A stretch of 64,000 nt of DNA from Camelus ferus (taxonomy: Eukaryota): the NCBI RefSeq assembly GCF_009834535.1, contig NC_045696.1, positions 62,560,001 to 62,624,000 of the forward strand, given 5' to 3'. How positions within the stretch are numbered: position 1 is the first letter of the stretch; each line of letters opens with the position of its first letter. A program made the translations under genes and the position numbers. The notes under the pieces were generated by a model. That model made no database searches. It saw only the letters and a program-made list of their open reading frames with translations, and was not told where the DNA came from. Below, piece by piece: positions 22,244 to 58,335 of this stretch.

Positions 22244-22245
<2 letters not shown>

Positions 22246-23461: not shown

Positions 23462-23589
23462 GTAAAAAAAAAAAAAAGAAAAAGGAAAAGAAAAAGAAAA
23501 AGATGCAGTCAACTAAAAATTAAGAAAATGTATGTCTAATGTAATTATTTAGATTTTTTTTCAAGAATTGAAATTGATCAATTGAAGAA

Positions 23590-31274: not shown

Positions 31275-31295
31275 GAAAAAGCCCGATCATATCAG
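31275..31295 (+). CDS. ACAP2: Putative alternative 21-nt microexon in PH domain, (R)KKPDHI(R)
   Basis: ~130-nt pyrimidine-rich upstream tract, cacatgacag|GAAAAAGCCCGATCATATCAG|gtacca; phase 2/2, frame-preserving, no stop. Confidence 0.72.
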
Positions 31296-32361: not shown

Positions 32362-32490
32362 GGGGGAGGGTATAGCTTAGTGGTAGACCGTGTGCTTAGC
32401 ATGCATGAGGTCCTGGGTTCAATATCTAGTACCTCCGTTAAAAAATAAATAAATAAATAAACCTAAACAACCTCACCCCCCCAAAAAAAA
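32362..32490 (+). mobile_element. Vic-1-like camelid tRNA-derived SINE
   Basis: GGGGGAGGGTATAGCTTAGTGGTAGA..GAGGTCCTGGGTTCAAT..AAATAAATAAACCTAA..CCCC + A-tail; TSD core AGAAATGTT. Confidence 0.9.
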
Positions 32491-34438
32491 AGAAATGTTG
32501 ATAATAACTGGAATTATTCTATAGGAGCAATTAAAAATTGTATTTCATTTTACTTTCCTGATTGAAGTCTTGATTAATCTAAATGAGTATAGTTAGCTCC
32601 TTTTTCTTTTTTTAATGGCAGAGGAGGGGAGATCGTGTCATAAGACATATAAATCTTAGTAATTAAAAATTTTTTTCTACCTAGGATACATTGTGGCATT
32701 TTTCCTTAGGAGAGATCAAATTAAGATGAATTTATAGTATTTTTCTTAAGTGTACAAAAATCGATGATGTGAAAAAGTCACCCAGAAGCAGAGAGACAGC
32801 AGGGAGTACTGGGCTTCATAAATATAAACGATCTATAAAGTTAATAATCAGAGGAAATAGTCTCTAACAAAAGTTTTTAATCTAGTATTTTGTTATTATG
32901 TTTAGAGGCTATTATTTTAAGATTCAGCAGGTCAAAGGAAATTTATTTTTTGAAGACCTCAGAAGCATGAAAAGTTTACATGGGTGTTTTTCCATTGTAC
33001 AATAAAATTCTTTGTAGTTTTTCATCAAATTATATATTATAATTATATAAAACAAAAATTTTATTAATATAGTTCACCCTACTTCAAATGATTTTTTTAA
33101 AAAACTCTTTAATCAATATCAGAGATTTTTTCCATTGCATGTCATCCCATGTGGCAGGGCTGCACCATTTTGTTTGTTTGTAGGTATTTCCTTTAACATT
33201 TCTAACCAACCATGTGTCCCAAAGCAAAGAAACCCAGAAGTTCTTCCTTTTCTAGCCTGCCTCTTGATGATTTACATTTGGAGGCAACCACTTGGTTTTA
33301 TCTAGATCCTTAATTAACAAATTTCTATTTTAATAGTAAAGGTGATACCTTTTTAAATAGCAAGAAAACCTAACAATCTATCTAGCTTAAAAATAGAAAA
33401 GCATCTAATCATTTTCTCAGCTTCGAGAATTAACCTTATTTTTTAAAAATAGAAATTCTAAATATATCTAAATACAACTTTTAGTGCTTTGTATTAGTAT
33501 CAATGAAAAGGTAGAATCTCTCTCTGCTAATAGATTAATAACTAATGTTTACAATAGAAATCATCTCACATAAAACTAATTTTAAAATAATGACTCAAAT
33601 ATTGTTTTACCTTTCATGCTTGATGAGAATTTTTGCTTTCTTTTGTGAATGGCTTTGGCTGTGATTTTTTTTTTTTTTTGTAAGTCTTTAGGTCCTTCTA
33701 CTGTTTTGATAAATTAGTAGCTTAGTTTTTTTCTTCTAAAGAAGATTGCAAGTGTTTGCCAATTAATTTACAGTAATGAGTGGGACAATATAAATATTTG
33801 TGTGAATCATTTTACTAATGATTTTTATTATTTTGCTTAGAAGTTTTTTACATGAAAGTAAGGCCAAGTGAGTTGGCAACTATTTCCTGTTTGATACCAG
33901 TTCTAAAGGGTGATAAAATTTTCTGTTTTGCTTAACAAATTGAATGTTTGTTGAATTAGCTGCAGAAAGGTTGAAAACAAAGCACCATTTATTTCAGTCT
34001 TTTATTGTATACAATGGATAGTTTTATTTATAATATAAATTTATTTCTACTTTATAACAAAAGCAGTTATTTTGTGGGAACAACTTAGTAATTTTTGAGG
34101 CAGCTCAAAAAGGTAAATTTTTATTTTAAAATAATCATTATTTGATAATAGCATAAGGCATAACAGCTTTTGTTAGGATATAAATTTCTGACATAAGAAT
34201 GAATCAAAATGTAGTAATTTTATTTTCCTATTTTGTGGTTTTAAAATTGTTTAAATTGTTTTTTTACTTTCAGTAGTTGTCTCATTGATGTCAGTTTATA
34301 TGAAGCAAAACAAAACAATGCACTTCTCAAAAAGTAACTACCATAAACTGATTTTCTAGTGCTTTCCCAAATACTTCATTTCTTACAACTGAAATAAATT
34401 ATGTTTGTGAGAACTTAATCTATTTTGTATTTATTTAG

Positions 34439-34490
34439 ACGCTGGTTTTCAATACAGAACAATCAGTTGGTTTACCAGAAAAAGTTTAAG
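34439..34490 (+). CDS. ACAP2: ACAP2 exon 11 (52 nt), PH domain: RWFSIQNNQLVYQKKFK
   Basis: ttatttag|ACGC...TTTAAG|gtaggt. Confidence 0.96.
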
Positions 34491-35770
34491 GTAGGTGTTT
34501 TGTGAAGTAATTAAGTGAAAATCCATTGAATCTCCAGTTTAAGTTTTTTTATTTGTTCCTCTTGGTAAAGCACTGAAATCCATAAATACTCATGAATGGA
34601 AAATTATCATTTATTGGTTTTATGTTTGAATAAGTATAAGAGGACTCATAAGTAGTAAGTATAAGCATTGATTCCTGAATTCTTAATTTCTAGCCTTGAG
34701 GTGGATTTTTCTGTGTCCCAAGATTATTACTTTTTCTCCTCCAGATGTTTCTTCGTCCAACTATGTGACAGGAATAACACTACCATTCCCTAGTACTGTT
34801 TTGAGGCTGAAAGAAAGGATGCTTTTTAAGAATATCACCTTAGGGTCAAAAGTGATAATATGGAAAGGTTAAAAATAACATAAATGTAAGCTTGAAGTAA
34901 TTTATATAGAAACCTCAAAATTTGTTTAAATTGTTTTTATGTATTTGTTTTCTTGAACCTTATTTTAAGGGGGAGGTATTTTTATTTAATGGAAAGATAT
35001 ATTGAGATTGCATGTGACTTGAGAATCTTAAAGATAACTAGAAAAAAAGAACTATTAGTTACTTGATGACTTGATTTTTACCAGGTTAGCCTGTATGAAT
35101 TATATATTCAACTGTACGTTTCAAGTATTTATTACTCTTGAGATGATACAGTGTGAAATTTTACTTGCTAGGTTCTATGGTAGCAGGTTTATTTCACACA
35201 AGTTCTTATAGTTGGTGGTTTTTTCCCTACTCTGATAAACTTGATTTTGAGTTTATATTTTTATTAAGTGCTAGAAAATGATAAAAAATTTCTCACTTTC
35301 TTAAATATTTTAAGAAGCATGTATAGGCTTCTTATTTTTCTTTCAGTTATGTAAAACTTGACTTATTAAATAGTTTTTTTTTTTTGAGGAAAGTGGCTTT
35401 TATTATATGTGAGTGGGGACCAGAAGAGAAATGGATATGAAAAAAAATGGAAAAAAATTAACAGGAAGCTAACACTTACTGAGCACTTGCTAATTAACTA
35501 CCAAGTGTTGGATGAAGCTCCTTATAGAAACTACTTCATTTAATCCTTTTACAGCAGTTTTAAAGGCAGATAAACTAATTAACAGGACAGAATTACCTTT
35601 ATTAGGTATATCTATGTTGATAACTCCTATTTCTAATCTAAAATAAGATAAAATATAAACCTTTAAAATTAGACCATTTATTCCAAGTACTGTTTTTCAG
35701 TATGTTTGTATTGGTAGTGGTATTTAAAATGTAGGTTGATAAATACTGGAGTTTTGTCTCCTTACTGTAG

Positions 35771-35871
35771 GATAATCCCACTGTGGTGGTGGAGGATCTA
35801 AGGCTCTGCACAGTGAAACATTGTGAAGACATAGAACGCCGCTTCTGCTTTGAGGTGGTTTCCCCAACAAA
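35771..35871 (+). CDS. ACAP2: ACAP2 exon 12 (101 nt), PH domain: DNPTVVVEDLRLCTVKHCEDIERRFCFEVVSPT(K)
   Basis: actgtag|GAT...ACAAA|gtgagt. Confidence 0.97.
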
Positions 35872-36469
35872 GTGAGTGATTCTCAAGAATTTGAGAGCTG
35901 CTTTTATGTTTCTATAGTTTGTCTTAAAGAACTTTGCAGAATAGAGAAGGATTTGTCTTTCACTTGTGATTATCTGAGCTAAAGAGGAAAAAATATTCTC
36001 AAAGTAAATTTTAATAATTAGTGATTATACCATATTATAGTCAGATATTAAAGTAGCTTCTACTCAGTATCATATTTGAATTCTATAAAGATTATTGATG
36101 TGGCCTTATGAAAACATTTTAGCTGTCATGGTAATGAACTGAAGTCATATATCAAATCATTTTCTTTGATAACTACCATTTCATATTTCTACTCAATGGA
36201 AAAAGTTAGTGTTATGTTTATATGGTAAATTAAAAATTTTTTTATACACACGAATAGGTGTTTCATTTTCAGTAGGTAATTGATTTCATTGGTTCCTTGA
36301 TTTCTTTATGAAGATACTCTGTCCTAAAGATAGATAAATAAAACCTTTCAACAGAAATAATTTTTTTTGTTGTTAGAAGATTATTAAATAACAAAGTGGA
36401 CAAAAAAGTAAACCGTCTTATTTTGGGGGTTAATTTAGTGTCTGAGAAAACCATGTTATTTCTTTTTAG

Positions 36470-36575
36470 AAGTTGTATGCTTCAAGCAGATTCTGAAAAG
36501 CTGCGCCAGGCATGGATTAAGGCTGTTCAGACCAGTATAGCTACTGCTTATAGAGAGAAGGGTGACGAATCAGAG
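36470..36575 (+). CDS. ACAP2: ACAP2 exon 13 (106 nt), end of PH domain: SCMLQADSEKLRQAWIKAVQTSIATAYREKGDESE
   Basis: tctttttag|AAGT...TCAGAG|gttagt; lies within ORF 36396..36620. Confidence 0.97.
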
Positions 36576-37513
36576 GTTAGTAAACAATACTTCAATACCA
36601 AGTATTGCCAAAAGTTTTAAATTTTAGTTGCAACATTGCATGATTATTATACTTTTTTATGGAGGATTTTTTTCTTGTAATGGAAATATGTTTTATTTTT
36701 AAATTATAGATTCAAATTCTCTTGACTGCACTCATCATTTTATTTCAATATGTCAATGTATGTTTAATACAGTATTTGAATATATGTCTCAGATTGACAT
36801 AAGGTGTTTTGATGTAAGTATTTCCCCCAAATATTTATTATTCTAATAAAATAGTGAATGTGAAAGTTATTTAAAATTGAAACTGGATAAAAAGCAAAAA
36901 AGGAAAGCTCATACTGTCTTCTAGTTGAAATCTCACTGGGGAAGGTAAGCTGAATATGCTCTTGGGTCATAGTCTGGGTTCAGCTCCTCAGTGAGTCTGC
37001 AGACTGAGTGAGGCTGTGAGTGAGTCTTGAGATATGAAATTCACCACTTCCTCCACTAGCTTCCTGAAAATGAGGCATTTGTGAGTCTGTGCATGTCTGA
37101 AAATGTCTTTATTCTGTGCTCATGTTTGTTTGATAATTTGGTTGAGTGTGGAATTTTTAGATTGGGAATAATTATTCTTAAGAATAACAATTCTTAACAG
37201 CATTGTTTTTGTAGTTTCTGGAGTTGCTGTTGGAGTCTTTCTTATTACTGATCTTTTGTACTCCTCCTCTCCAATTTCTTTGTTTTCTTTTTCTGGAATT
37301 TCTGGACTGATCTTAGGATTTTCTTATTTTTGTGTGTTTTTTGCTCTGCATTCAGGGAGAATTTATCAGTTACTTTTCCAAATCTTCTATTGAATGTTTC
37401 AGTTCTGCTAGCATATATTTAATTTACAGGAGTTCCTTTTTGTTTGCTGAATGTTTATACACATAAATCTATTCTTTTTTCATGCATATAACGTTAGAGT
37501 TGTAGTTCTTAAT

Positions 37514-37643
37514 TTTTTTTTCCCTTTTGGGGGGGATAATTAGGTTTATTTACTTATATATTTTAATGGAGATACTGGGAATTGAACCTAGGACCCTGTG
37601 CATGCTAAGCATACACTCTACTACTGAGTTATATGCCCCACTC
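37514..37643 (-). mobile_element. Vic-1-like camelid tRNA-derived SINE
   Basis: taattaggtttattta..ctgggaattgaacctaggaccctgtgcatgctaagcatacactctactactgagttata; TSD TGT(A/G)GTTCTTAAT at 37501 and 37646. Confidence 0.88.
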
Positions 37644-37645
37644 AC

Positions 37646-37812
37646 TGTGGTTCTTAATCTTGACTGCACATTATGATAACACAGGGAGCTTTAAAACATC
37701 TCAGTGCTTAGGTCCCACCCTAGAACAACTGAATGGAGTTAGGAGCCATGGCATCAATATTTTTAAAAGCTTTTTAGGTGATACCTGTGTGCAGGCAATG
37801 TGAGAACCATTT
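37646..37812. mobile_element. MER5A-like hAT-Charlie element (terminus interrupted by the SINE)
   Basis: gtggttcttaatcttgactgcacatta..ggagctttaaaa..tttttaaaagctttttaggtgat..tgagaacca. Confidence 0.75.
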
Positions 37813-40049
37813 TATTAGAAGCTTTCCTTGGCTGTTAATTTGCTCATGGTTGCAAGTGAAGGGTTAACTTCTTTGGAAGCCCTGAGAACATAGTTAGGAC
37901 TTTGTTGACTATGAGCTTCACTGAAGTCTGGTCCATTTGTTGAGGAACAACCAGAGTTAGGGTCTTTTGGAGTCTTTTCAGCTGTTAAGATTCCCCAGAG
38001 AAGATTGATCAGTCTCCTGCATAGGGATGAGAGGCCTGCTGGAAGCTAATTGCTGGGAATCTCAGCATTCAGGGTGTATATGTTCATTTAATCCTCTGCC
38101 TTCCACCTTTCAGATGAACCCCATCTAGTCACTTTCTGTTTTACTTTCCCAGAGACTATACCTCTAGTCATTTGTGTCTTTGTAGAGAGCAGTACCCTAA
38201 TGGCATAGAGTTGGGGAGGAGACCTTGGATCTAACTGCTTCTTAAACAACCATTCTTCCCACTTTCATCCTCCCTTCCAGGATTAACCAGTGTAAGTCCT
38301 TCAGCCCTTTGAATATTATGTGATGAAGTTGATGAACTCTTAGATTTTTCTTCTTATCCTTAGATATCACCTTGGTCTACTTGGTTACCATTCATCCAGC
38401 CATTTTTTAGCTCCCCAGATTTTGTTGCTCTTATTTTCTTTCCGGTTCTCCCTATTCTTGTGGATAAATGTCTTTATTTTTTTAATTAAAAAAGCTGAAG
38501 TTTTCTAAAGGAACTTACAGATATCATCATGTCATTTCACACTTAACAGTAATTTCTTAAGCATCTTTCACCTAGTCTATATTCACATGTCCCTGCTTGT
38601 CCTAAAAATGTTTACAGCTTATTGTACAAAGTAAGATCTTATCTATGACTAGGCATTGCATCTGGTCTTATGTCCCTTTTCTTTCAGCCTAAAACAGTCC
38701 CTCTTTTTCTTGACAATGACTAGCTGAAAAGATTAGGCTAGCTGTTCCTATAGAATTCCTTCTCATACGATTACAACAGAGATGATGTGTATACTGCATG
38801 TTGTAACAGGAGACATCCAATATTTGGTTATCTAACCATTGCTAACAATAAGATCAGGCTTCTGTATGAAAATGAAGTGGACACGTTGGATTAGGGAGAT
38901 GGCAGTATGATCCCTCCATTGTCATGTTACATTTCCTTTCTTGTTCCCAGTCTACTTGGTTACTTTGTGTAACAAATCTAACTTACTTTGTGTTACTTTG
39001 ACCCTGTAAGATCTATGCCCCCATCAACCATTCATCTAATGGTGTTACAATTGAATTTGTAATTTCATTAGGAATTGCAGAATGATGATTTTCTAATTTT
39101 GTCATCCTGTCCGCATTTATTAACTTGCATTCTTATGTAAAATACAGCTTTTCTTCATCAACTAGAGCTATTTAGTTTCTGTAATAAAATGCTTAAGTTT
39201 TTGCTTTTAATTACCATATTTGGTTAACTTATTAGCTACCTTATGTGGGGACAGAAATTTTTGGGGGGGCTATCATCATAAACTTAAGGATTTTTGTAAA
39301 TACAATGGGTCACAACTGCAGTAATTACTCTTTTTCACGTTCAAATTATCACAGATTTCCTTATAAGGGCTGTAGGTAATTCCTTGAAAAAATTGTCTTG
39401 TTTTTAGTGGAGTTTTGAGAGGGAACAAATTTAGGTGTGTATTCAAATCATCTTGATGAAGAAGCTAGTGGTGGTGTTGAAATACTTGTGTTATGCAAAA
39501 TCATACACTGGAAATAGTAGAGATTATAGGAAAAATAGGGATAGGGCCAACCTAAAACCCATGTAAGTTTTTCCTAATACTTTAGACACTCAATAAAATA
39601 GTAGCATAGTTACATTCCTAATAAATAAATACTATAGTTTAATAGAACTTAACTTTAAAAATTGGTGCAAACAAAACTGGTGACACTAGCTTAATGGAAG
39701 GGTACAGAAAGGTTGATGCTTTGGTGACAAAGTCAAAATACATAAAAATCAGAGAGAATAGTACAAGAAAATTTTCAAGTGAGAGCACATTGCCAAAATG
39801 AGCCAAGAAGAATGAGGGGATGGATAGGTATCATGTTCAGTCCGGTGTTCCTTGAGGGGGCCAGCTGAGTTCTGCTGTGTTAGTTTGCTTTGCTTTCAGC
39901 TTTGGTGCAGAAACATTAGCTTACAGAGGAAAAACTGGGAAAGAACCAACATGTTTTCTGTATTGTATTGATATCCTTTTCCTATATAATAATTGCCTAT
40001 GAGGTAATTTACATTATCAAACATATTCTAGTAAAGCAGATTGTATTTC

Positions 40050-41400
40050 TTTTTTAAAATTTTTAAAATAATCTCAAACTTACACAAAAGTTTTAAGTAT
40101 AGTACAAATAATTTTTTCCTTGAACCGTTTCAGAGTAAGTTGCTAATGTCTGCTCCATCACCATTATTTAGTGAGTGCTTCCCACAACTGGAACATTCTG
40201 CTGTTTAGTCATAGTATAGTCATCAAAATAAAGAAACAAGCATTGATAAATCACACCATTTAATTCTCAAATATCATTGTTTTGACAGTCATCCCAGTAA
40301 TGTTCTTTACAGCAAAAAGATCTAGTCCAGGGGAGACTGTTTATTAGATCAGTGGTAGAGTGCATGCTTAGCATGTGCAAGGTCCTGGGTTCAATCCCCA
40401 GTGACTTCATTTAAATAAATAAAAATAAATAAACCTAACTACCTCCCCCAAGCCAAAAAAAAAAAAAAAAAAAAAAAGGAGCACAGGTCACTTTTAGTTG
40501 TCATGACTCTTCAGTTTCCTTCAGTCAGGAATAGTCCCTCAGTCTTACTTTGACCTTCTTGACCTTGATTGCTTTAAAGGTTACAAACTTTTGTAGAATG
40601 TCCCTCATTCTGGGTTTGTTTGATGTTTTCTCACAACGTTATGTGTCTTTGGCAGGAGTATTATATAAATGATGTGGTGTTCTTACTGCATCTTCTCAGG
40701 TGGCACATGACTTTGATTTGTCCCATTATTAGTGATCTTCACTTTGATCACTTGATAAGGTGGTGTCTGCTGGACTTCTCTACTGTAAAGCTATCTTTGA
40801 AATAGTATTTTATGTACGCTTGGAGGTACTTTGAGACTGTGTAAATATTCTGTTCCTGATCAAGCTTTAAATTTTAAAGTTTTAATTATATCAGTATAGG
40901 CCTCTATTTTATTCAATTTATTAGAATTCATTACTATCATTATTTGTTGCTCAAATTGTCCAAGTTTGGCCAGAGGAGCCCCAGCTTCTGTATCCTTTTG
41001 ATATGTTCTCAACAATCTTTGAGTTCTTCCTTACTTTCTAGTATGGCGAGATGTTCTGAGTTCATCTTCTTGTACTTTCTCTGCACCAGCCTTGAAATCA
41101 GCAGTTTCTTCAGTGAGCCCTTGTTGTTTTTGGTGGAGAATGATTTTTAGGAACCAAAATAAGGGAATATGCATGTGTATATATACACGTTTACATCCGT
41201 ATTTCTTAATATATCTATTTTTATTGAAACCATTATTGTGCCTCTTTGTATCTCCAGTCCCAATCTAATACAATTGAGGTTTGTTCTAATTCTCTCCTTT
41301 TCCATTTAAGTAACTCCTTTCTCTGCAGTGAGAAATCTGGCTCCCATTTATTTTTAGTGGGTTTACTTATATGTCCAGTCCCCTGTATGTGACCAACATC
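40050..41400 (-). mobile_element. Old L1 (L1MC/MD-like) 3' region (bounds approximate)
   Basis: aataatctcaaacttacacaaaagtt..atagtaca, tttgtagaatgtccctcattctgggtttg, ctttgatcacttgataagg. Confidence 0.65.
40330..40477 (+). mobile_element. Vic-1-like camelid tRNA-derived SINE
   Basis: TCAGTGGTAGAGTGCATGCTTAGCATGTGCAAGGTCCTGGGTTCAATCCCCAG..AAATAAACCTAACTACCTCCCCC + long A-tail. Confidence 0.9.
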
Positions 41401-42117
41401 CTTTCTCTGTTGCCATTTTCCACTCCCAGGCTCTGACACCTCACACTAGGTGGCACTCCCACCTGATACCTTCGTTTGCATCCTCAGGCTCTCACTTCTC
41501 TTGTTGGGCTGTCTTCTTGTGCAGATACCCTCCTTACCCTGCTTGGGATGCAACAACCTCCACGAGGTTGCTCTCATTTGAGGATATGCTCCTCACCCAG
41601 CTCAGTCCTCTCTGGAATACCATATCCCCACACTTTCTTTGCTGAGCCCCACCTAACAGCTATTAGGTTGAGTTTTCGGGAAGGGCCAGACAAGCACCAG
41701 ATTGTATTTCTGTTGATTCTGTGCTAAAATACTGGCTTGTTAAGGTTGAAATGTTTTTAAACCAGAAGGTTTTTTAGGCCATATCTTTAATTGCCTAGGA
41801 TCCCCAAACTACATCTTTGTATTTGGTCATTATTGATATAGACATTGCTGTGCACTTAAAAAAATTAGCTTTTGGCTTATCTACCACCTTTTGCTTTTCT
41901 TCTGGCGTCCTAATAGCCCGTAAGATTTTAGACATTGTGCATTCTATTGTTGATTCACTCTGTAATTATGTAATTATGCGTGGAACAGCCTGGTTTAGGC
42001 TCAAAGTAGGACTTCAATGTATGGATTGGAAGTTTTTGTTTGGAGCATGTAGTGTGCAACATAGAATTACTAGTATATTGCAATCTTTTTTAAAAAAATA
42101 ATTCTTAATTCTTTTAG

Positions 42118-42399
<282 letters not shown>

Positions 42400-42669
42400 T
42401 AGAGGACCTTTCCCACTTGCCTAATTTGACTGCTAGTTTGTGTCTTTGTACCTTTGTAAAGTGGATAAAATTCTGGTTTATGAAGTGCTTTTGAGTACTT
42501 TGATTCATCATTCATTATTAACCAGAAAATCTGTCCCTATTATTAACGTGTTGAGGGCTACATTAGAGGCTGTGTCACATTAAAAGAGGAAAATAATTTG
42601 CATAATATGCAAATGGAGTAGAGACTTGATAGTTTTATATATTAATACAGTCTTTTTTTTCCCACTTAG

Positions 42670-42739
42670 GAGTCTTGGAGTTCATTTTTCAAAAGTACGC
42701 TCTTTAACTTTAGATACCTGGGAGCCTGAACTTTTAAAG
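42670..42739 (+). CDS. ACAP2: ACAP2 exon 15 (70 nt), ArfGAP: SLGVHFSKVRSLTLDTWEPELLK
   Basis: cacttag|GAGT...TTAAAG|gtaaaa. Confidence 0.97.
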
Positions 42740-43903
42740 GTAAAATAAATATTTGCTTTAAAATATTTTATGTTTTCTCATAAAAATCAAGATTTTAGAA
42801 TCTTGGTTTACAAATGTATGAGTTTCTCAGTGTTAATAACGAATCAAATTGTGTTGGAATATATCTGACACTATATATTTGGCAAATCTGGTGTTTTCAT
42901 ATTGGTCTTTTTTAGATTGCTAAGCTTATGGAGCTTAATCCATGTCAGCTCACTTTTTAAGGAAACCAGCATACTTATATTTTTGTGTTTTCTCAAAAAG
43001 TATCTTACATTTTTGCCTTAATTTTAATCTTTTATAATTATATAAATTCTTGTTAAAATATGAGATACTGCTATAGTGAGCTCCACAATGGGTTGGTATA
43101 GCATATTGTTATGATTGCATTTTTTCAGCATAGGCCCACTTGCAACTTTACATTTGTCAGTGATAGTAGTCATCAGACCAAGACATCCTTTTCCCCTGTG
43201 TAAGGATTCGTATCTATGAAAATGTCATACATAATTTTAGATCACAGAGATTTTTTAATAAGATTTATGAAATTCATAATGGTTAACAGTATACTCCTTT
43301 AAATTCCCACCATTTAGTTTACCATATTGCAAAAAAAAAATTAGTTTGAATGTTGTGCTATATTTTGCATTTATTTCTGTCTGAAAATTGTGTTTGTAAT
43401 GTGCTTGTATTTTTATTCCAATCCATAGATAAACTGATAATCCTGTCAATTATGTAAAATAAAAACTTTTGATTTTGGGCATTTTTGTGTAAATATCTAA
43501 ATGAAGGTGATAAATTGCATCCTGTGGTAGACCCCTATTTAGATAAGTTCTATAAATTGTTATGAATTCAAAGGAGAAGAAAGTGGGGGTTGAGGGTTAG
43601 AAATTTAATTTCTGCACCAGCTTTGTGTAGATATGAACTCAGTGGATTCAATTTAGAAAAATAGTTGAAATACAAGTGTCTGATACATTAAAAAAATCGA
43701 AACTTAAAAAAAAATTTGAAATACTTGTAAATAAAGTAGTAGGAGAAAATAGTTTATTACAGTTCTCAGCTGTTTAAAACTGAACCTGTCTGGACCTAGC
43801 CTTCTTTTTTAGCAGACGTTGCGAATAACATGTAGCCTTGTGCCAGCTATAATGGAGAGATAGAAATCTGGTAAAAGATGGGTGAAGAGAAACCATTTAA
43901 AAA

Positions 43904-44052
43904 TTTTTTTTTTAATTTTTAAAATTTTTTTAGTGGGGGAGGTAATTAGGTTTATTTATTTATTTTTATTTTTCAAAGAGGTGCTAGGGATTGAACCTAG
44001 GACCTCATGCATGATAAAGATGTACTGTACCACTTGAGCTATACCGTCCCCC
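43904..44052 (-). mobile_element. Vic-1-like camelid tRNA-derived SINE
   Basis: gggggaggtaattaggtttatttattt..gggattgaacctaggacctcatgcatg..gagctatacc; TSD GAGAAACC(A/C)TTT at 43887 and 44054. Confidence 0.88.
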
Positions 44053-44280
44053 TGAGAAACCCTTTCTTGAGGAGTGATAATCTTCTAGGAAGATGCTCTA
44101 GTAGAATGGCAAAATGGTGATATTGCTTGCAATTTTTGTCTCATTTTGTTTTAACTTTAAACATCTTTGTGGAATGAGCATTAGCAGAACATGCAAAAAG
44201 AATTAAGTAGCTGTGCTTGCTTAAGGACTTATATTACTTTTAGGAATTTATAACTTATTTTCTGTTTTTCTGCCAAACAG

Positions 44281-44372
44281 CTTATGTGTGAGTTGGGGAA
44301 TGATGTCATAAATAGAGTTTATGAAGCTAATGTGGAAAAAATGGGAATAAAGAAACCACAACCAGGACAAAG
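44281..44372 (+). CDS. ACAP2: ACAP2 exon 16 (92 nt), ArfGAP: LMCELGNDVINRVYEANVEKMGIKKPQPGQ(R)
   Basis: ccaaacag|CTT...CAAAG|gtacta. Confidence 0.97.
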
Positions 44373-45744
44373 GTACTAATTTCAGTTGTGTTAATGTGTT
44401 ACCTTCCCCTCTCCCCCAATCAGGAATATAGCTGTGATTTTATTTCACTATAATTGGTATGTAACATTGAGACAGACTGTTCACAAGAGATCATTACTAC
44501 CTGTTAAAATGTGGCTGTCTCTTTCTTGGGTATATTAATTAGATAATCATTTTTTTTATTAATCATAAACTTAGTTATAGTTTTCAGATAAGAGAGAATC
44601 TTAAAAATTAAGGCTCTATATAGGGATGTAAAAACTCTTAGCAGTTGAAGTAGAACAAAGTTCTGTTATTGGCAGGCCCTTAAAGAGATAATGTTTCTAA
44701 GGATCAAGTTTTTATTACTTACAATGAATAATTTCACATTGTTTGACTTAGTTCAGCAAATATTTGTTAATCACATGTTTCATACATGACATTATTATAT
44801 TGAAGAGTTAAAGGTGAAAAGGGTAGCTTCTGGTAGGAGAGAGCACTTAACACTTAATTGCTCTGTTTGAAATTTTACTTTCAATTCTATGTATGGAGAC
44901 TTATTGAACGAAGTGGCTAAGAGTGTCTTCAAAGGTAGACAATTAGTTTTTATTGTTGTTGTTTTTAGAATTTATGCTTTTTTATATTAGGTATTAAAAT
45001 TTTACCTGCTGTAATCCTATGTTTGACTATATCTTTATGTATAATTAATACTTTTTAAAAGTCATTGCTTTCTAAACCAACACCACTTAAATCAGATTCT
45101 TATTTTTTTGGCTAAAGCGTGGCTGTTTGAGTTATTTTAGACCTTGAGTTATCCTTTGTTAGCCAAAGACCTAAGCTTTTTTAAAAGAATGTAAGTAAGA
45201 AAAGGTACAGAACAAACTTGGGATTTTATGATTGTATCATAAAACAGAAGTTTAAAATGTGATACCTTTTTTGGTCCCCCTTAAGTTAGAAATGCTATGT
45301 ATGCTGTTTTAAAATATTGTCTTACAAAAAATAATGGTTATGAATAGTGATAGTTCAGTATGTGACATTTATTGGAGTAAAAATGGAATTAAAGTTGATT
45401 TCTATGAACTTGAGTAGTTTCTTGGTAATGTTTTTCATTCTGTAAAAAGCACAAGGGAATATGAATAGAAATGAGTGAGCATAGAAATTAAGAGAATATG
45501 AGAGTGCCATGTTAATACTTAGGATTCTTCAGTTAGTTTATTTGTATTTCACTTAAACATGAAATCATAGTTCATTAAATATTTGGAAGGAAAACATGTT
45601 GCATAATATTACAATTTCAGCTTTAACTAGTATTACATTTAGTGACTTCCTTTGCAATATTCAATATGTAATGGCTTCTTTTTAGTATTAGCCATGCTAA
45701 GAGATTAAGCAGAACATCATGACATTTTTATGTATACCAATCAG

Positions 45745-45929
45745 ACAGGAGAAAGAGGCGTATATCAGAGCAAAATATGTGGAGAGGAAATTTGTGGATA
45801 AATATTCTATATCATCATCACCTCCTGAGCAGGGAAAAAAGATTGACTCCAAAAGTTATGAAGAAAAGAGATTGAGCATTTCTAAACTTGGACCAAGTGA
45901 ACAAGTCAGAGCATTTCCCCAAAGTTCAG
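45745..45929 (+). CDS. ACAP2: ACAP2 exon 17 (185 nt): QEKEAYIRAKYVERKFVDKYS...RAFPQSS
   Basis: ccaatcag|ACAG...TCAG|gtatta; lies within ORF 45719..45955; the linker half differs from recalled human ACAP2 at several residues. Confidence 0.96.
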
Positions 45930-46117
45930 GTATTACAGTTGGTTTGTCTATATAAATATGTTCTTGAGCTGAAGTCACTTTCTTAATCTCTGAATTAGTA
46001 CCTGTTACAGATTTTTTAAATGTTAAGAACCTATTTCCTTCTATATACCCTAAGGAAACAGTTATCTTTAAAGCAGTTAAATTTAAATAATGTCTTGGTA
46101 ATTCATATTTCTAGATA

Positions 46118-46355
46118 CAGTTGACCCTTGAACAACTCGGGGATTAGGGCGCCAACTCTCTGCTCAGTCAAAACTCCACATATAATTTGTAGTCAGTTCC
46201 TCCACATCTGCTCGGCAGTTTCTCTGTATCCTCAGTTCTGCACCCATGGATTAAGCCAACCCTGGATCACGTGGTTTTGTAATATTTACTACTGAAAAAA
46301 TCCGACTATAGGTGGACCTACCTAGTTTAAACTTGTGTTGTTCAAGGGTCAATTG
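46118..46355. mobile_element. MER8-like (Tigger2 family, TcMar) MITE, 238 bp
   Basis: TIRs CAGTTGACCCTTGAACAAC / GTTGTTCAAGGGTCAATTG, flanked by TA on both sides. Confidence 0.9.
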
Positions 46356-46562
46356 TAGTGTGTATATTCTAAGGAACAGAACTGCTCAGAATGCAAGGGG
46401 AGATGGGAGTTACAAATCTTTCATGCAAAAAGCCCTAAATATCTGATTAACCACCTAATATCCTTCCTATTTTTTCCTCCTAAATTTTTCCCAGTAATGT
46501 TTTTCCTGCCCTTTTCCCTTCTTACGGCCTGCTTTGTGCTTTGCTAACTTGCATGTCCTCAG

Positions 46563-46667
46563 TGGTTGCTGTAAATAGCGACGAGGCCAGGCGGGAGTCT
46601 CTCTTCTGTCCTGATGAGCTAGATTCACTCTTCTCCTACTTTGATACTTCTTCAAAACTACGTAGTA
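46563..46667 (+). CDS. ACAP2: Putative alternative 105-nt cassette exon: VVAVNSDEARRESLFCPDELDSLFSYFDTSSKLRS
   Basis: Pyrimidine tract, ctaac branch-like site and cctcag|TG...AGTA|gtaagt; phase 1/1; CpG-retaining coding-like sequence; resembles recalled ACAP3 RRDSLFCPDELDSLFSYFD. Confidence 0.88.
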
Positions 46668-47050
46668 GTAAGTACTACTCTTGTGGAGCATCCCAAGTCT
46701 GTGCCGGTGGTCATTGTGCGGTGTGGCCATTTCTCTAGATGTTACCCATTGTCTCAGAATTACACATTACTAACAGTCATATAGTAAATTCAGCTCTTTA
46801 CTGTCCCTGACACTCATGGGGTAGAGATATGTTACAACTCTGAAAATAAGTTTATTTTCAGGCTTTGTGATTGATTCATATTTCAATAAGCAAAATGTTC
46901 CAAAGGATTACAGTTGTGCTAAATTTATTCACTGGTGGTGGCTGAGTTTATGTAGATGTATCAGAGCTCATTTTAAAACCTCATTGTTTGTGGGAGACTG
47001 TTTTCTCAATGTGTGAACTTTAATCACTAGCTAATTTTTCTTTAAAACAG

Positions 47051-47143
47051 TCAGAAGTAATGACAGTGGAATCCAGCAGAGCTCTGATGATGGAAGAGAA
47101 TCTTTACCCTCCACAGTGTCAGCCAATAGTTTATATGAGCCTG
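47051..47143 (+). CDS. ACAP2: ACAP2 exon 18 (93 nt): (V)RSNDSGIQQSSDDGRESLPSTVSANSLYEP
   Basis: taaaacag|TCAGA...CCTG|gtgagt. Confidence 0.96.
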
Positions 47144-48215: not shown

Positions 48216-48404
48216 AAGGAGAAAGGCAAGATTCTTCTATGTTTCTCGACTCTAAACATCTTAATCCAGGACTCCAGCTTTACAGGGCTTCCTATGAGAA
48301 GAATCTTCCTAAAATGGCTGAGGCTTTGGCTCATGGTGCAGACGTGAACTGGGCAAATTCCTGAGGAAAATAAAGGAACACCGCTTATCCAGGCTGTATT
48401 AGGG
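48216..48404 (+). CDS. ACAP2: ACAP2 exon 19, start of ankyrin region; 189 nt with an apparent 1-bp insertion near 48360-48361 (TGA at 48362-48364)
   Basis: ttttcag|AAGGA...TTAGGG|gtatga. Reads EGERQDSSMF...GADVNWANS*; removing one C restores EENKGTPLIQAVLG and the 188 nt required by the phases. Confidence 0.93.
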
Positions 48405-48822: not shown

Positions 48823-48932
48823 GGCTCTTTGGTGACATGCGAGTTTCTCCTTCAGAATGGTGCTAATGTGAATCAAAGAGATGTGCAAGGGCGGGGACCA
48901 CTGCACCATGCCACCGTCTTAGGGCACACGGG
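48823..48932 (+). CDS. ACAP2: ACAP2 exon 20 (110 nt), ankyrin repeats: GSLVTCEFLLQNGANVNQRDVQGRGPLHHATVLGHT(G)
   Basis: cctctaag|GGC...ACGGG|gtaaac. Confidence 0.97.
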
Positions 48933-50240
48933 GTAAACTATAGTGCTACATATTTGAGTGTATTTTGTTTGAAAAAAAATATTTTAAAATAATGTTTTGC
49001 TTTTTCTCAGGTTAAGAATTTTAGGTAGAGTTTGTAAAGTGATACTTTCCTCTGACTTATATTGTCATGATGGAACTTGAAATTTTAAAAATTTCATTCA
49101 TGAAAAAGATACTGTTACTTTTCAGACAAGAAAATTACAAAACTTACTTTCAATTTTACTAATATTTATATAGATCTGTTTCAGTATTTAAAACTGTTAC
49201 TGAAATTGTTGCGATTTTATGAGACAACGTAAGTCTGTGTGTGTGTGTGTGCATGCCCGCATGCATTTATGGATATACACACATACATTATGTACATAGC
49301 ACACACATTTTGGGAGAATTTTGTAACTTTGTAAATTTTAGTTTTTCCACAGGGTAGTTAAAGTCAGATTCTAAAGTAAATTCTTATTCTGTGCTATTGA
49401 TGCTGTGGCTTCTGAAGCAATATTTAGATTCACAGAAAAATAAAACAATAAAAATAGGCTTTCTACTAGAGAATACAAATAAAGTAAAAATGTTGGCCTT
49501 ATGTGAAAAGTTTGTGTCATAGATGATTGTTTCTCAATAAAACATCTCAGGATCTCCAAGACTTATTACCTGGACAAGCAAGAAGCTGTCCTTTTTTCAG
49601 TTTATTTATAGTATCTTCTATTTTTATCATAGGCTGTTTTCTTTTGCTTTATTAGCAAAGAGATTCAGCTCAATAACTTTACCTTAAAAGTGGTTCTATT
49701 TAACTCATCCTTTGTATTTTCTTCTTAAACAATCATAGTTATTCCCCATTTTACTTCACAGCCTCTTAATTTATGCCTTCATTTTTTCATTTTTGTCAAT
49801 TTCTTTGTTATTAATATTTGTGGAATACAGTGGCAAGATTTTTGCCCACTTTATTGCTATTGTAATTATCATTAACATATTATGATAACATTGCCTTGGC
49901 TTCCTTCTTTCCCAGATAATGGCCTTGAGTGATTTTTGTTTTATTTAAGCTTATACCTATCTCTGTACATCTTTTTATGATATTCTTTGATGATAGAGAC
50001 CATAATTTATACATCCCACTGTGTTATATATTACAGGTTAAATATGAAAATACCTTGAGATTTATAAAATGCTGATCATGATAAATTTTTATTATTAGAG
50101 TCAATATTCAGTAAATCTTTGTCAAATCAGTCAAGAATTTCCTAATGAAAATGTTACTTAAGTAGTTTTTTTTTTAAGGTGAATACCAACTTTTTTTTTC
50201 CTTATTGACAATATCTCAAAAATGCTGTTTCCTTAAACAG

Positions 50241-50351
50241 GCAGGTGTGTTTATTCCTAAAACGAGGTGCCAATCAACATGCCACTGATGAAGAAGGGAA
50301 AGACCCTTTGAGTATAGCTGTGGAAGCAGCCAATGCTGATATAGTGACTTT
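50241..50351 (+). CDS. ACAP2: ACAP2 exon 21 (111 nt), ankyrin repeats: QVCLFLKRGANQHATDEEGKDPLSIAVEAANADIVT(L)
   Basis: ttaaacag|GCAG...ACTTT|gtaagt. Confidence 0.97.
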
Positions 50352-50489
50352 GTAAGTGTTTTTTTTTCCATCTGATTATTTCTCATAAAATATATTACTT
50401 GTATATGGTTTTAACATAGAGTTTCATGTGTAGACCTGAAATTTAAACTTGGTTATTTACTATGGGCTGTGTGCTTCTCTAACTACATT

Positions 50490-50690
50490 AAATATATTAA
50501 GCACTTTACATACATGAACTTATTTGGTTCTCACCTCAACTCTATAAAGGTTTATTATTATTGGCCTCATTTTACAAGGAAGCCAACTACAGATAATTTG
50601 AGAAACTAGTAAGTGGTGGAGCTGGGATTTGAACCCAAGAATTCTGGCTCAGTAACCCATGTGCTTAGCTACTTCTCTTATACTGCCTGA
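50490..50690 (-). mobile_element. MIR SINE
   Basis: attattggcctcattttacaagga..ctagtaagtggtggagctgggatttgaacccaag. Confidence 0.8.
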
Positions 50691-52555
50691 CCAGTAGGAA
50701 CAGAAAACCATTGACTTTTCTAAAATGGAATCTTTAACTCTTAGTACAATACTGGGGTGGAAGTTGGGTTGGGTTGGTACAGTAACAGGCAATTATACTA
50801 CTACCTCAAGAATTAGAGGATTGTAAACAGGGAAGCCAACTGCGTTGATGTTAGTAACTTTTGCAGTTGCATTGCCTTTGGGCAGTGGTATTTAGGGACC
50901 TGTTTGTGCTTTTTTTTTTTTTTTTTCCAAAGAATTAGTCACATGAGTACTCTATTTTGAGATAAAAATACTTGTTTTTGGATGTTTGGATATAATTTAA
51001 TATGATCTATTAAAGAAAGAATCTTGAGGTCTTAATTTGATTTTCATCTTAGATCAAAGTTGTTTGTTATACTTGGAATCTAGGAATGTGATTGTTGCCT
51101 ACACTTCATTGTTACTTAGGAAATCTCAAACATATGTTGTATGGATCACTTATTCATTCTGTTCTGGGCTGAGTGAAACCCAGGGTTGTTGATCCTCTGT
51201 TGTACGAGTAGAGACAGTTCCATCCACACTGCTGAATGTCAGTCATTTACAAAGAGAAACTCCCTTGACTGTCTTGAACTCCTGAGCTCCCACTGAGAAT
51301 TCTTCACTTGACACATGTCACCCCTCTCTGACCCCTGAAAAGTTAAAAACAAAACAAAGCAAAACAAAACAGCAAAACGTATTTTCTCTGTACTCAGCTT
51401 CTTTTCCTCGCTGGAGGGGTTTTTGTTATTGTGGAGGCTATTGTAGAAAACCTTAGAACCGTTAAATCATTATAGATTTACAACTAGAAAAAATAAGTTG
51501 TTAAAGAAAAGATAGGAATGGTATAGAGAAATGAACCCTGGCTGCAGCTTCCCAAGCAATTCTTATAGTAATGGCCTCTCTTCCTTAGAAATATCTGGTC
51601 CCACATTATCTAAATTTTCTCATTTTGTTTTGTATGAGGACTTAAGTTTCACTTAAAAGTTTTTTTTGAAAAAAAATTTTGAAATACCCATCCTCTCTGA
51701 AAAGTCCAAATACCAAAGGGAGACTTCTTTTGCTATTATTAATTTACACAGTGGTTGAGAAAGGAAATGGAAGGGAATTGTGGTACTTTGAAGATAGGAA
51801 AAACCTCTATCAGACGCTGTAATAGCCAGAGAGAGCATCTTGGAAGAGGGTGATAGAAGTCTGGGAAGGCAGTGAGTATTTGGTGGCCTGAGGACAGGTA
51901 AGAAGTACAGAGTAGGAGAGGGTCACCAAAAGCAACATTTGAGAGGAAACTCTTGTTTTCTTAATCCAGTGCTACATTTCTTCCTGCTGCCGAGATAAAT
52001 AATCCTGAAAAGAACGTACAATCAACATGGTAACCATGGGAAAATCTTAATAACTTAATGGCCATTTGTTTTAATGTCTGTGTGTCAAATATATTCCCAG
52101 TATATATAGAGAATACATACTATTTATATGTCTGAAACTGCTATACCTCAGAGTGAACCAGAATGAACTTATGACAGGCTATTGCTTCCATACTACAGAA
52201 GCAATTATTTTAGCAGTTGGCAGTTAAAGTTTGACAGGTTGCTTTAGAAGCCAGGAATTCTCTGGAGTCTGGAAGAAGTAAGCTCCTGGAGGTGCTGCAA
52301 GGAACCTGCTTAAACAGAGCTGAAATGCTCTTGTTAGAAATCTTTTATTGTCTTCTTTCATGAGAATTGTATAAACTAAAATATGGTTATTTTTATATCT
52401 CAGATTGCTAGGTCTGATAAACTAAAAACCCTTTTGTTTCAGCAGTAAAAGAAAAAATTATATTAGTACATGTCTTAGCTCCTTATATAATTCTTTAGCT
52501 TATGAATCTTTATATTGTACAACTTCATTTAAAAAATCCTTTTATTTAATTTTAG

Positions 52556-52617
52556 GTTACGTTTAGCAAGAATGAATGAAGAGATGCGGGAATCAGAAGG
52601 ACTTTATGGACAGCCAG
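52556..52617 (+). CDS. ACAP2: ACAP2 exon 22 (62 nt): LRLARMNEEMRESEGLYGQP
   Basis: attttag|GTTA...CCAG|gtcaat (weak donor). Confidence 0.96.
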
Positions 52618-52703
52618 GTCAATATTCTACCAATAACCATACTGAAATGCAGTATAAGAAATGCATCCAGGAATTTATCAGTTTACAGTTGGAAGATTCA
52701 TAG
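52618..52703 (+). CDS. ACAP2: Alternative C-terminus by read-through of the exon 22 donor: GQYSTNNHTEMQYKKCIQEFISLQLEDS*
   Basis: Frame stays open for 28 codons to TAG at 52701-52703; resembles recalled ACAP3 C-terminus PTELQFRRCIQEFISLHLEES*. Confidence 0.85.
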
Positions 52704-55700
52704 TTCTTTAGCAAACTAACTTAATACTATAGAGTTTTTATAAATTACTTGTAAATTGTGAGTTGTTACGTATGTACTGTACTTCCTGAATTCTTGGGAG
52801 TGGCTCACTCCCGAGCCTTTAAAAATCCATAACTATTCCTATTACAGTACGCATTTACTTGCTGTATTTAACTCTGGCTGCTGACTTCTTTATCTGCTGT
52901 ACAGATGTCTTCCATATACATTCCAGTGAAGTGAACGGAATGGCAACGCATCTTTATATCCTTACAGCAGCACAACAGTCATTTTCTTTTTGGCTGTCAA
53001 GTGAATATAACAAAATTATTTTCTTTTTGTTATTCAGGGAATTTCTATAAATTGTGTTCAGGGAAAAAACCAAATCACTTTGTGTTGGCATATAAATGTC
53101 AGTATGGAAAATACCTAGAAAAAGCTTATTGGATTAAGAGTTCTGTATTTGATCTAAAAATGAATTGAAGGTTTAAAAATAAAATTTACCAGTAAGTTAA
53201 GAAGCCCACGATCAGAGTGGAGTTAGTTTAAAACGTACAGGGAAAAGGTCTCATTTTATCTTGTAGCTTTGCCCCAAGCAATTGTACACTATCTGTTGGA
53301 TAAACAGAAGTATTTAGAACAATATTTTGTGAACTTGATGGCAACATAAACTTATTTTTATTAGAGAAATCTCAACTCAGGATCAGCTCAAGCCTCATTT
53401 TGAGTAATTTTTATCTTTGAGTTGAGATGTCAAGAAAAGCAAGAAATGTTGCTGATAAGATTTCTTTCTTGATGAACACATCCTAATTAGACATTCTTCA
53501 CAAAGAAGAGAATAATAATTAGATCTCCAGTTTCATGAATTTCAGTATATGAATGACTAATTTATCTGTTTTAAATTCATATACATGTTGGTTAAAAATT
53601 TCAGGAATTCATGACCAAAATAATTGAGAGTGTTCAGTTTTCAGTGAGTACATTTGATTTTTTCAATGAATATTAATATATTATTTTAAAAGTAGCTTGT
53701 AATATCATCTATTTTTCCTGTTTAAGTATGTTTTGAAATTTCTGTACTTTATGCTAGCTTTAGCCATTTACTTTTATTTTAACCAGATTAACATATAATT
53801 GATATAAAAATGGGACCATTCTTAGAGGACTGTATTTACTACTTATTTTTGGTCTAATTTAATAGGGAGCAAGTAAGAACTCTGAGAATAGAGGCACTTC
53901 AGCTAGGTACTTCTAATCTAGGGTGTCCCACTTTAATCCTATGGATCAAACAATACTACTGATTCATGATGTACCACGATGTAAGAGTGCTGATTAAGGG
54001 TGAAGTGTCAGTATTAATTCTGAATTTCACCTATTTGTTTTAAACTTGAATGTTAGATTTTAAATAAGTTATAATTTTGTAACAGATATACTTAAAAGAT
54101 AGTATTACTAGGCCATTTTTGAGGCCTTTGTGTTTAAGCACTTTAAAATGAACATTATTCAAAGAATATGATCTGATATGGGAGATAAGAGTGAACTTCA
54201 AGTTTTGAGTGAACTTCAGGTTTTAAGTTAAACAATTTTTTTTTTCCCTGAAATTTTAAACATAAATGTTTGGTCAGCTGCTCTTTCCTTAAGGTGTTTG
54301 CTGATGAAATTACACCCAACAGATTAGTCAGAAGGTCAGTGGTCGACTTTTTCTCTGGAGCTGGGAAGCTTGGAAGGACAGGTCCTCTGTGTTCTTGCAA
54401 CTTCTAGTTCCACCCAGACTGCCTGGGCTTCTGCCGCTGTGTAGGAGCATTCACATGTGTCTTTCACTGTCGTTTTATGTGTAAGTTGATGAGTATATAC
54501 CTTCCAGTCATCGGTACAAAAACAGATTTTTCTCATTTATTTGAGTAAAAATTTGAAAGAAAAAGCTTTATTTAAAAAATAAAAAAACGAGCTTTTCTAC
54601 TACCACTCTCAAATTTTAGTGTAGAAAAGATTAAAAATACATCAGAATTCTGGAAATGGTGTATCAGCAGAATAAAATGAGATTCTGATTTGATCATAAT
54701 TAGATTTTAAATTCATTTAGAGAGTCTCATATTTAAAGCAGAACAACTTTATACTTATACAGGTGACGTGGTGAAATGGCTCAGTAATTGCTCTGGCTAC
54801 TTTTCCTTTGTGAGTCTTTGGAGAGCGGATGTTTTTGCTCAGGCAGCAGGCCTTTTTCTGCTTTCTGCTTATCACTGTAAATTTTTCTCTCGTTTTTTGA
54901 TGCCTAGCAATAGAAAGAAAGCCTCAGAATTCTGGGTAATTTTAAAATACAGGTATTTTCAATGTTTTCATTGTAAAGAGCCCTATCATTTTAAAGATTC
55001 AGATACAATTTTGGAAACTATGGACCTATTTCTAGGAACCCTCGCTTTAGAACTTCTGGCCTACAACCCTAAGGACCTGAGGCTCCCTATCTTTTTGCAA
55101 GATGATGTAAGAGCACACATTTCCTGAAGGGAAGATGTATCCCTCTTTATCGGTTCCCACAGCTCTTAGGAGGACTGGGTGGGTGAGTGCAATATCACAT
55201 CCTGCTCTCGATTGTTGGAAACCAATTTGGTGATTCCCACAGTCTCTGGCTCTGGGACTCCTCTTGATTGTGGCAGTTTCTCAGCCAGTAGAAAATCACC
55301 ACTTTAGTGAACCACCACTGGCTACTAGAGTATGTGGCCGGTGAAGACTGATTAATGATCTAATTGGTTATAAAAAGGAAGCTGCAATTAACCCAGAAGG
55401 GGCAGGATCATACACTGATCACCTGGGGGTGGGGTCTCATATGCTGCTGTCTTTGAGAGGAGTACATTTCAAGAGTAAAATCAGCAAATTTGGATCATAA
55501 CTGTGGTTGTAGTGGTTATTCTGAATACCAAAAATCAAAAACTGTCTTAAACTGTCAGTGGAAATAAAGCAGTCCAATTTTAAAGACTCAGAACTGTCCA
55601 GGCACATAGAAAGGTTAACTTTCTGAAGAGAAATAGAATGTGATTAAGTAATTTAAAGAATATAACTTAGTACTACAAATATTGAGTGGTTAGTTGTTTA

Positions 55701-58234
55701 CTGTTTATAATAAAGTGTTAAATGTACTTATATGAACTTTCCAGGGCAACATATTCTGGGTTATTGTTTATGTATTCTAGTGTAGACAAGTTATATTTGC
55801 CTTGGGAAACATTCTAAATGATTAAAATTGTATTTAAAGAATCACATTGAAGTTCAGTTTGTGTTAACTGTATTACATTTCTCAGTATTGTAATTGTAAT
55901 GTTTGCTTTTTGACAACACATTTTGAGGCCTAAGAAAGGTATTATATTGATAGTCCATTAATTAATGTTTGGTTAGAAACTGGATGTTAACAAAAAGTTT
56001 TGTGTGAGCATTTGAAGGTGAGACTTCCTTTTGTGTTAACTCTTTTAAAATGTATTCAGTAAGTGAAACCAATGATTAGTATAGCACCAACACTTTCCTT
56101 CAAGGAAGCATTTAATTCAGTGAATAAAAAATCTTATAATTTGTTTGCATGGTACAATGGTTCTACTAGAATGTACTTGTGTAATAGGTATTAGATGATT
56201 TAAAAACAAAAACTGGAAAACCACAAAAAGAAAAAAAAATCCCACAGCTTGTTATACAAAATATGCATTGCTAATAGTAGAAGCCATATATTGCCATTGT
56301 ACTGTTGTAATACTTAAGAATGCTCATCTGGTGCTATCTGTAAACTATTTGGCATTAGCGTCTGCTAGATCCTTCCTATTTCTTCTTGAATGTATAATGT
56401 GTGCCTTTTAAGTTACTTTTGGTGTTGAATAGTAAAAATCAGTGTGGTATTTTTGTATTATAATCTGCACTTTACACTTTCTTGGAAAGTAAATTCCAGA
56501 CTCTCCAGTTCATAGTATTTTTTAAATGTTTATAATGTTTACAATAAATATTTTCAATATTTTAATTCAACATCTAAGAATAAGAAAAACTTTAAATATT
56601 TTGTATGGTTTGTTAATTGATATTTAATGTTGGTCTCTTCTCAGTTTATTTTATATCTTTTAGAATGGCTAAAAATGGGAATAGATTGTAGTTTGTCTTT
56701 TAATGTGGGAGTAAGCTTTCATCAAATCATGGGTGTAATTGGATTGTCTTTACCAGTTGTTCCAGCATATCAACCTTTATTTTTATTGTTTTAGTAACAA
56801 TAATATGAGTTAGATTTTACTCTTAGCCACAACCTATTAAGATTCTCTTACTGGTTTTTTGTTTTTTTCTTTTTTAAGTAGAGTGGTTGATTCAGGTCAT
56901 GAGAAAATTTCCAGGGCTAAATGAAAACTATATAGATATTTTAATAACTTGCTTTTTACACTGACTAAATATTAAAAGCATTAAAAATTTTTATTGAAAA
57001 TCTTGGGTTATGCTTTTAGACCTTTTTACTAGATCTTTACCTCCTTCCCCCAATTTTTTTCTAATTCTCTTAGTGTTTGGTATGACATCTATTGCCTCAA
57101 AAAATCTCGCTTTTTACAAGCTGACAAAACTTATTGCACTATTAACAGCAACTGTAGCAATAAGTTTGTAATAAGATGGATGCAAGGTATCTCATGGGGA
57201 AAAATTATAAAACCATATTGAAACAATAATCGTCTAAAACAGTATTTGACAATCTAAATCTTGAAAACAGAACTATGCCAAGCTTCTGTATAAGACTGAT
57301 ATGTTTAACAGGAAGCATTCATGATGAATGATTCATCTTGAAAATAAGATTTTATTTTATACAGATCTTTTGCCTGAGGAGTTAATCATGTGTGTATATA
57401 TTTATTTATAGTTTTTCATGGCAAGAAAAAGGTATTCAATCTGCTATATCAGTGTCTATAATTTACTTCTCTACAATCATATTTGTATGTGTATACATAT
57501 GTATTACTCTAATTTAACAGATGTCTTTGGTATTTATTGCCCCTTTGTTATAGTGTCCTTGCTCATATAACCTACAGTAAACAAAAAAAAAACCTTCTTG
57601 ACTAAATGTGAAACTGATTTTAAAGTCATTTTCTGGGCTTTATTATTTTATAAGCTTAGTAAACAGTGGATTAGATGCATTAGTTTTACTTAAGTATTAA
57701 AGTTTGAACAAAGATTTACTTTTCACATGCTATTTAATTTAAAATGCCTTTAATTAAAAGACAATATTAAAATAGGAGGCTTTTCCCCCACCTGGGTATC
57801 AGTTTTGTCTTGCTAATAACTTGCATCCATCAGAAACATTAGTATTTGTCTTTGGTCTTTTCTTTTGGCCTTGATCAAGGGAAATATTTGTTTAAAGAAT
57901 GCCTTGTTTATTATACCTCATTTAGAATGACTTTTATTTCTCATGTGTTAATAAATGTATTTCTTTACATTGCTTTAAAATACTGGCATCTTTGCTCTTT
58001 TCTAACTCTGAGCTTTCTTCTGTGGCTGCCTCTGAGGTGCTTTGTTCAGGTATAGTTTTTTTCTCTTTCACTGTGTAACTTTCCAGCACTTAATTAGTTG
58101 GTCTTTTTTCTTTCAAAAATGCTCATTTTAATATAATGAATTATAAAATAGTTACTAATCATAAAAATAAACGTTGCTTATTAGTACTTTCTTTGGGTAG
58201 ATTTTAAAAGTGTCTTTATTTTACTTTCATGCAG

Positions 58235-58335
58235 GTGATGAAACTTACCAGGACATTTTTCGTGATTTCTCCCAAATGGCATCCAATAATCCAGAGAAAC
58301 TAAATCGTTTCCAGCAAGATTCACAGAAATTTTGA
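58235..58335 (+). CDS. ACAP2: ACAP2 exon 23, coding part (101 nt): GDETYQDIFRDFSQMASNNPEKLNRFQQDSQKF*
   Basis: ttcatgcag|GTGAT...TTT TGA. Confidence 0.97.

Follow-up and report, generated by a model that had tools for sequence, protein, structure and literature searches.

Background

ACAP2 (centaurin-beta2) is a conserved Arf6 regulator whose recruitment depends on its ankyrin region. This region (residues 587-777) has been described as binding Rab35-GTP, and the deletion construct ACAP2-deltaANKR as defective in Rab35 binding (PMC4502309, available text), with which the statement in a preliminary description of the present locus, that the ankyrin region mediates Rab35 binding in ACAP2, agrees. 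The N610A/N691A mutant is likewise described as Rab35 binding-deficient in the consulted part of a review (PMC6358971), and elsewhere ACAP2 is called dosage-sensitive and proposed as a driver at human 3q29 (PMC11264174, available text). Gene loss in camels has also been described: the accessible text of a study that kept only losses common to all three species of Old World camels names, among others, TAS2R16, CES3, CPA3 and PLA2G2F as inactivated (PMC12127551). Furthermore, indels have been reported as the main residual error of long-read assemblies, with 25-80% of the tested genes affected in three human assemblies, rates that come from assemblies of 2015-2018 (10.1101/285049).

In this paper, we have analysed a window of 64,000 nucleotides of the Camelus ferus genome (NC_045696.1, positions 62,560,001 to 62,624,000, forward strand), in which the ACAP2 gene carries one surplus base and a premature stop in exon 19. 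Like the lesions of the inactivated genes listed above, this is a frameshift with an early stop in a camel gene; those lesions, however, are common to three species and lie in tissue-specific genes (PMC12127551, in the accessible text), whereas the ACAP2 base is absent from other camel-type records. As with ACAP2-deltaANKR and N610A/N691A, the 637-residue product would be without most of residues 587-777, although the former are described as cDNA constructs (PMC4502309, PMC6358971, as far as available), whereas with a genomic allele decay would probably act first. The locus also shares with the residual indel errors described by Watson (10.1101/285049) a lone 1-bp insertion, absent from other records of the lineage, in a conserved exon that is otherwise perfect; it differs in that the insertion is here only a probable error, and in that a check of GPCR genes, itself biased, gave no stops.

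Results

Structure and identity of the ACAP2 locus

Mapping of a 778-residue primate ACAP2 orthologue (P0039) on the window by tblastn and protein mapping gave 19 exons covering residues 96-778, with a single frame change, placed between 48361 and 48363 by both methods. Exons 2-4 lie upstream of the window, and their residues 18-95 are unchanged relative to P0229, a camel-type ACAP2 protein; the label exon 19 holds if residues 1-17 form one coding exon. All the ACAP2 splice sites within the window are AG/GT, and the phases of exons 5-18 are consistent.

7399-7457, 9062-9245, 12758-12802, + strand: ACAP2 exons 5-7, intact, AG/GT, residues equal to P0229
15871-15966, 21754-21828, 27060-27172, 34439-34490, + strand: ACAP2 exons 8-11, intact, AG/GT, residues equal to P0229
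35771-35871, 36470-36575, 42118-42326, 42670-42739, + strand: ACAP2 exons 12-15, intact, AG/GT, residues equal to P0229
44281-44372, 45745-45929, 47051-47143, + strand: ACAP2 exons 16-18, intact, AG/GT, residues equal to P0229
48216..48404, + strand: ACAP2 exon 19, residues 589-651, 189 nt as written, AG/GT
48823-48932, 50241-50351, 52556-52617, 58235-58335 including the stop, + strand: ACAP2 exons 20-23, intact in their own frame

By Pfam on P0229, to which the window exons are equal, the domain order is BAR, PH, ArfGAP, ankyrin: exons 5-18 (7399..47143, + strand) encode the BAR, PH and ArfGAP domains and the linker, and exons 20-23 (48823..58335, + strand) encode ankyrin repeats and the C-terminus. 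The first part of exon 19 matches chain A of PDB 6IF3, named ACAP2, with an E value of 2.7e-20, compared with about 1e-7 for ACAP1 chains. The exon region has one DNA match in the 2.09-Gb assembly, and the high-identity ACAP2 protein matches all lie at C1:62.55-62.62 Mb (57 of 160 candidates scored). Paralogue-like loci with 45-89% identity per exon were found on C13 and C16. The gene identity given in the preliminary description is thus borne out by the domain order, by the preference for the ACAP2 chain and by the location of the paralogues elsewhere; the camelid origin is supported as well. A duplicate or retrocopy of ACAP2 was rejected on the ground of the one DNA match and of the high-identity exons at one locus among the 57 scored candidates. 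Judged from these comparisons, the locus is a single intron-containing ACAP2 orthologue, ordinary apart from the surplus base.

The paralogue loci are G000:C13:345500-355499 (L040) and G000:C16:11840000-11849999 (L041), which we take, from similarity, to be ACAP3-like and ACAP1-like, respectively. Several other features were observed in the window. A 21-nt alternative microexon of 7 residues (31275-31295) is intact, and is found in P0229 as well as in 62 of 263 fetched proteins. Between exons 17 and 18 lies an alternative exon of 105 nt (46563-46667), also intact, that is found in 76 of the 263; reading past its donor leads to a stop, as in two gene models without the ankyrin region, P0223 of horse and P0243 of bat. 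Read-through of the exon 22 donor (52618-52702) gives an alternative C-terminus that is present in 17/263 proteins. The introns also hold a degenerate copy of the U1 snRNA (22656-22804, + strand, 91 bits) with a changed 5' end, which is probably a pseudogene. A tRNA-derived short repeat, which we assume to be a camelid SINE family, occurs in five copies in both orientations (~24885-25024, 32366-32495, 37515-37642, 40345-40477 and 43907-44051), open frames at 5428-6218 (- strand) resemble L1 ORF2 fragments, and two long TG microsatellites lie at 2625-2723 and 3465-3557.

A surplus base in exon 19

Positions 48350-48373 read TGG GCA AAT TCC TGA GGA AAA TAA. Exon 19 is entered in phase 1, and its 189 nt do not lead to the phase-0 exit needed by exon 20, which a length of 188 nt would give; the spliced frame confirms this arithmetic, which had been put forward before. 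The features at and around the break are as follows.

48360..48362, + strand: surplus base; removing C48360, C48361 or T48362 each gives exactly residues 96-778 of P0229
48362..48364, + strand: premature TGA after residue S637, by spliced translation
48371-48373, + strand: second in-frame TAA, from the sequence
48344..48349, + strand: weak cryptic GT donor, an in-frame exit before the break
48219, + strand: possible second acceptor of exon 19, 3 nt downstream of the first

As written, ACAP2 stops after residue 637 of 778, and the 778-residue open frame is not found; spliced translation thus upholds the earlier claim of a stop near residue 637 with loss of most of the ankyrin region. Before the break 542/542 residues are identical to P0229 and after it 141/141, up to the normal stop (the 7-residue microexon set aside), so the frame break is not a chance match. 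Exons 2-23 (residues 18-778) contain no other lesion, and the residues of exons 2-18 and 20-23 all equal P0229, as expected from the claim that all other exons are intact. Two details required revision. It had been stated that deleting one C restores the frame; removing C48360 or C48361 does so, but the extra base may equally be the T, because the absence of T48362 also yields P0229. Moreover, the stop does lie just before the first canonical ankyrin repeat, as had been described, but it falls inside the Pfam Ank_2 match, which spans residues 617-711 of P0229, or about 610-704 in the 778-residue numbering.

Camel-type records and other ACAP2 proteins

Two further camel-type records, both compared at the protein level, are intact at the site. 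P0121 (KAB1284012.1, named Camelus dromedarius), a rough and visibly imperfect gene model without several segments, reads through the site in frame, and among the best 120 of 737 matches it alone of the representatives shows 100% identity over the fast-evolving 61-residue linker exon, the next being at 95%. P0229 (XP_010992696.1 and XP_074221679.1, two RefSeq accessions on two contigs) also has the site in frame; it equals the window at 683/683 encoded residues and at residues 18-95 upstream, and none of its three displayed names starts with 'LOW QUALITY', whereas that of P0234 in the same table does. No further camel-type sequence was found among seven short exon-19 gene calls from sequencing contigs and the listed cluster members. 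Relative to P0039 the window has 12 substitutions, 10 of them in linker exon 17 (45745-45929), and this exon, which follows the ArfGAP domain, is a useful lineage marker.

The 8-residue spacing across the site is kept in 320 of 323 fetched ACAP2 proteins, the exon being absent in the other three, and none of the 323 ends at the site. The two truncated window peptides are absent from the 15-billion collection searched, and a 28-base motif beside the site had no match in metagenome contigs. Residue 642 (48375-48377), which lies immediately N-terminal to the first canonical ankyrin repeat's TPL motif, is G in the window, P0121 and P0229; two of the 323 fetched proteins have G and nearly all others A. 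G642 as a second error was rejected, as it is a camel-type residue common to P0121 and P0229.

As for the literature, the six supplementary text files of the camel gene-inactivation study mention ACAP2 once, in a list of one-to-one orthologues, and no loss of ACAP2 in Old World camels is named in its searched text and supplements, some figures of which, such as that of 58 candidate genes, are possibly unsearchable images (PMC12127551). No report of a camel ACAP2 allele was found in the literature searched on ACAP2 with camel or frameshift.

Public sequencing runs

For public sequencing runs, 114 words were sampled from a stretch of about 1 kb (48170-49200); the resulting shares cover the whole stretch, without word positions. 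Among the 24 runs listed, 14 have a share of 0.97 and one 0.96; five RNA runs (0.21-0.67) and four runs at 0.00 were left out of the reading. A share of 0.97 corresponds to 111/114 words, the only count that rounds so, and none of the listed runs is higher. With one private base, 3.4 words are expected to be missing (0.22 being the probability of exactly three), and with two separate sites 7.0 (0.054). The 14 runs at 0.97 fit the window minus one site, the missing words being without position. The runs with the best shares come from two organism labels and six studies; their independence is weak, as nine of these 14 carry a possible-source flag and, among the remaining five, some are as large as flagged runs and possibly refilings. 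Sequencing contigs, moreover, drop or collapse rare or heterozygous variants.

Predicted consequence of the break

Exon junctions lie 40, 150, 261 and 323 nt past the premature stop. As a rule, a transcript is expected to be degraded when a later exon junction lies more than 50-55 nt past its stop. Because the junctions 150, 261 and 323 nt downstream exceed this distance, the transcript would probably be a substrate of nonsense-mediated decay if the allele is real, as had been proposed. A surviving protein, if made, would keep the BAR, PH and ArfGAP domains and lose most of the ankyrin region (587-777); a protein ending at residue 637 keeps 37 of the 170 ACAP2 residues of the 6IF3 chain. From their spacing of 81 residues, N610 and N691 probably correspond to N618, which would be kept, and N699, which would be lost. 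If the allele is real, Rab35-GTP would probably be unable to recruit the truncated ACAP2 to switch off Arf6.

Discussion

We consider it highly probable (roughly 85%), on evidence that is indirect, that the surplus base comes from a consensus error left in this assembly and that the ACAP2 of the animal is intact. The preliminary description had left the choice between a consensus error and a true allele open, and the evidence now tilts strongly to error, because P0121 and P0229 are intact and because of the word shares of the runs. The surplus base would then be missing from the animal's DNA, and its own ACAP2 would be an ordinary intact BAR-PH-ArfGAP-ankyrin gene, as in the other camel records. 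Such errors usually arise when a doubled base escapes polishing. On the other hand, the assembly does not look error-ridden, which counts against a consensus error: none of 149 class-A GPCR matches in it has an internal stop (best 147 of 1641 candidates scored; 14 rows partial), in a set that is biased towards intact genes and thus gives no error rate, and the counterpart of ACAP2 exon 19 in either paralogue reads through.

That a camel carries a natural null allele of ACAP2, heterozygous or even homozygous, which segregates in its population is unlikely. A genuine allele private to the sequenced animal, likeliest heterozygous (or of cell-line origin), that was by chance picked by the consensus, is a little less likely again. 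A single fresh lesion with no other decay has the look of a new allele, intact records of other animals say nothing about a private variant, and three junctions lie 150-323 nt past the stop; in addition, the GPCR check gave no sign of frequent coding indels, and the runs of the source animal may not be among those listed, while contigs collapse heterozygous sites. However, 0.97 is also the share of the nine runs that carry a possible-source flag, and the listing of ACAP2 as dosage-sensitive in humans, in the available text of PMC11264174, lowers the prior for a null. Assembly indels, moreover, usually outnumber true nulls in conserved genes. We regard it as very improbable that this camel species, or a population of it, has the null allele as a common or fixed variant, which would make ACAP2 a very young unitary pseudogene covered for by ACAP1 and ACAP3. 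Both paralogues are indeed present in the assembly with most exons recognisable, and the species labels of P0229 and of the coded runs are not displayed, so a difference at the species level is conceivable; against this, the camel-type records P0121 and P0229 are intact, the runs from two organism labels and six studies are all without about three words, residues 18-778 contain no second lesion, and the searched parts of PMC12127551, where loss in three species was required, do not name ACAP2 among the genes lost by Old World camels. The several lesions or relaxed divergence of a unitary pseudogene are absent, and the lesion is not shared with the camel-type records. An old pseudogene was rejected on the ground of the one lesion, the canonical splice sites and the lack of any residue differing from P0229, in line with the earlier judgement that long-term pseudogenisation is unlikely.

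The base could also be real and bypassed in splicing, with the cryptic donor after 48343 joined to exon 20 in frame at a cost of about 20 residues. That donor does yield a phase-0 exit, but on a crude matrix its score is 0.6, compared with 4.8 at the real donor; 17 of the 18 donors in use score higher, and so high a score is reached by 42.5% of the window's 3828 GT sites. Its use would remove TPLIQAVLG, with which the first canonical ankyrin repeat starts, the frame is shifted if exon 19 alone is skipped, and such a form is seen in none of the 323 fetched proteins, so that we give this explanation hardly any credence. Rescue through skipping of exon 19 or through acceptors past the break was rejected, owing to a frame shift or to the lack of a polypyrimidine tract.

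Conclusions

If the surplus base is an error, as we think very likely, it is a base to correct in the assembly and a trap for gene-loss screens. If it is real, it would mean that a conserved regulator of Arf6 has a natural loss-of-function variant, of minor interest in one heterozygote and of real interest in healthy homozygotes, and it would then offer a test, in a living large mammal, of whether the Rab35-ACAP2-Arf6 switch is dispensable.
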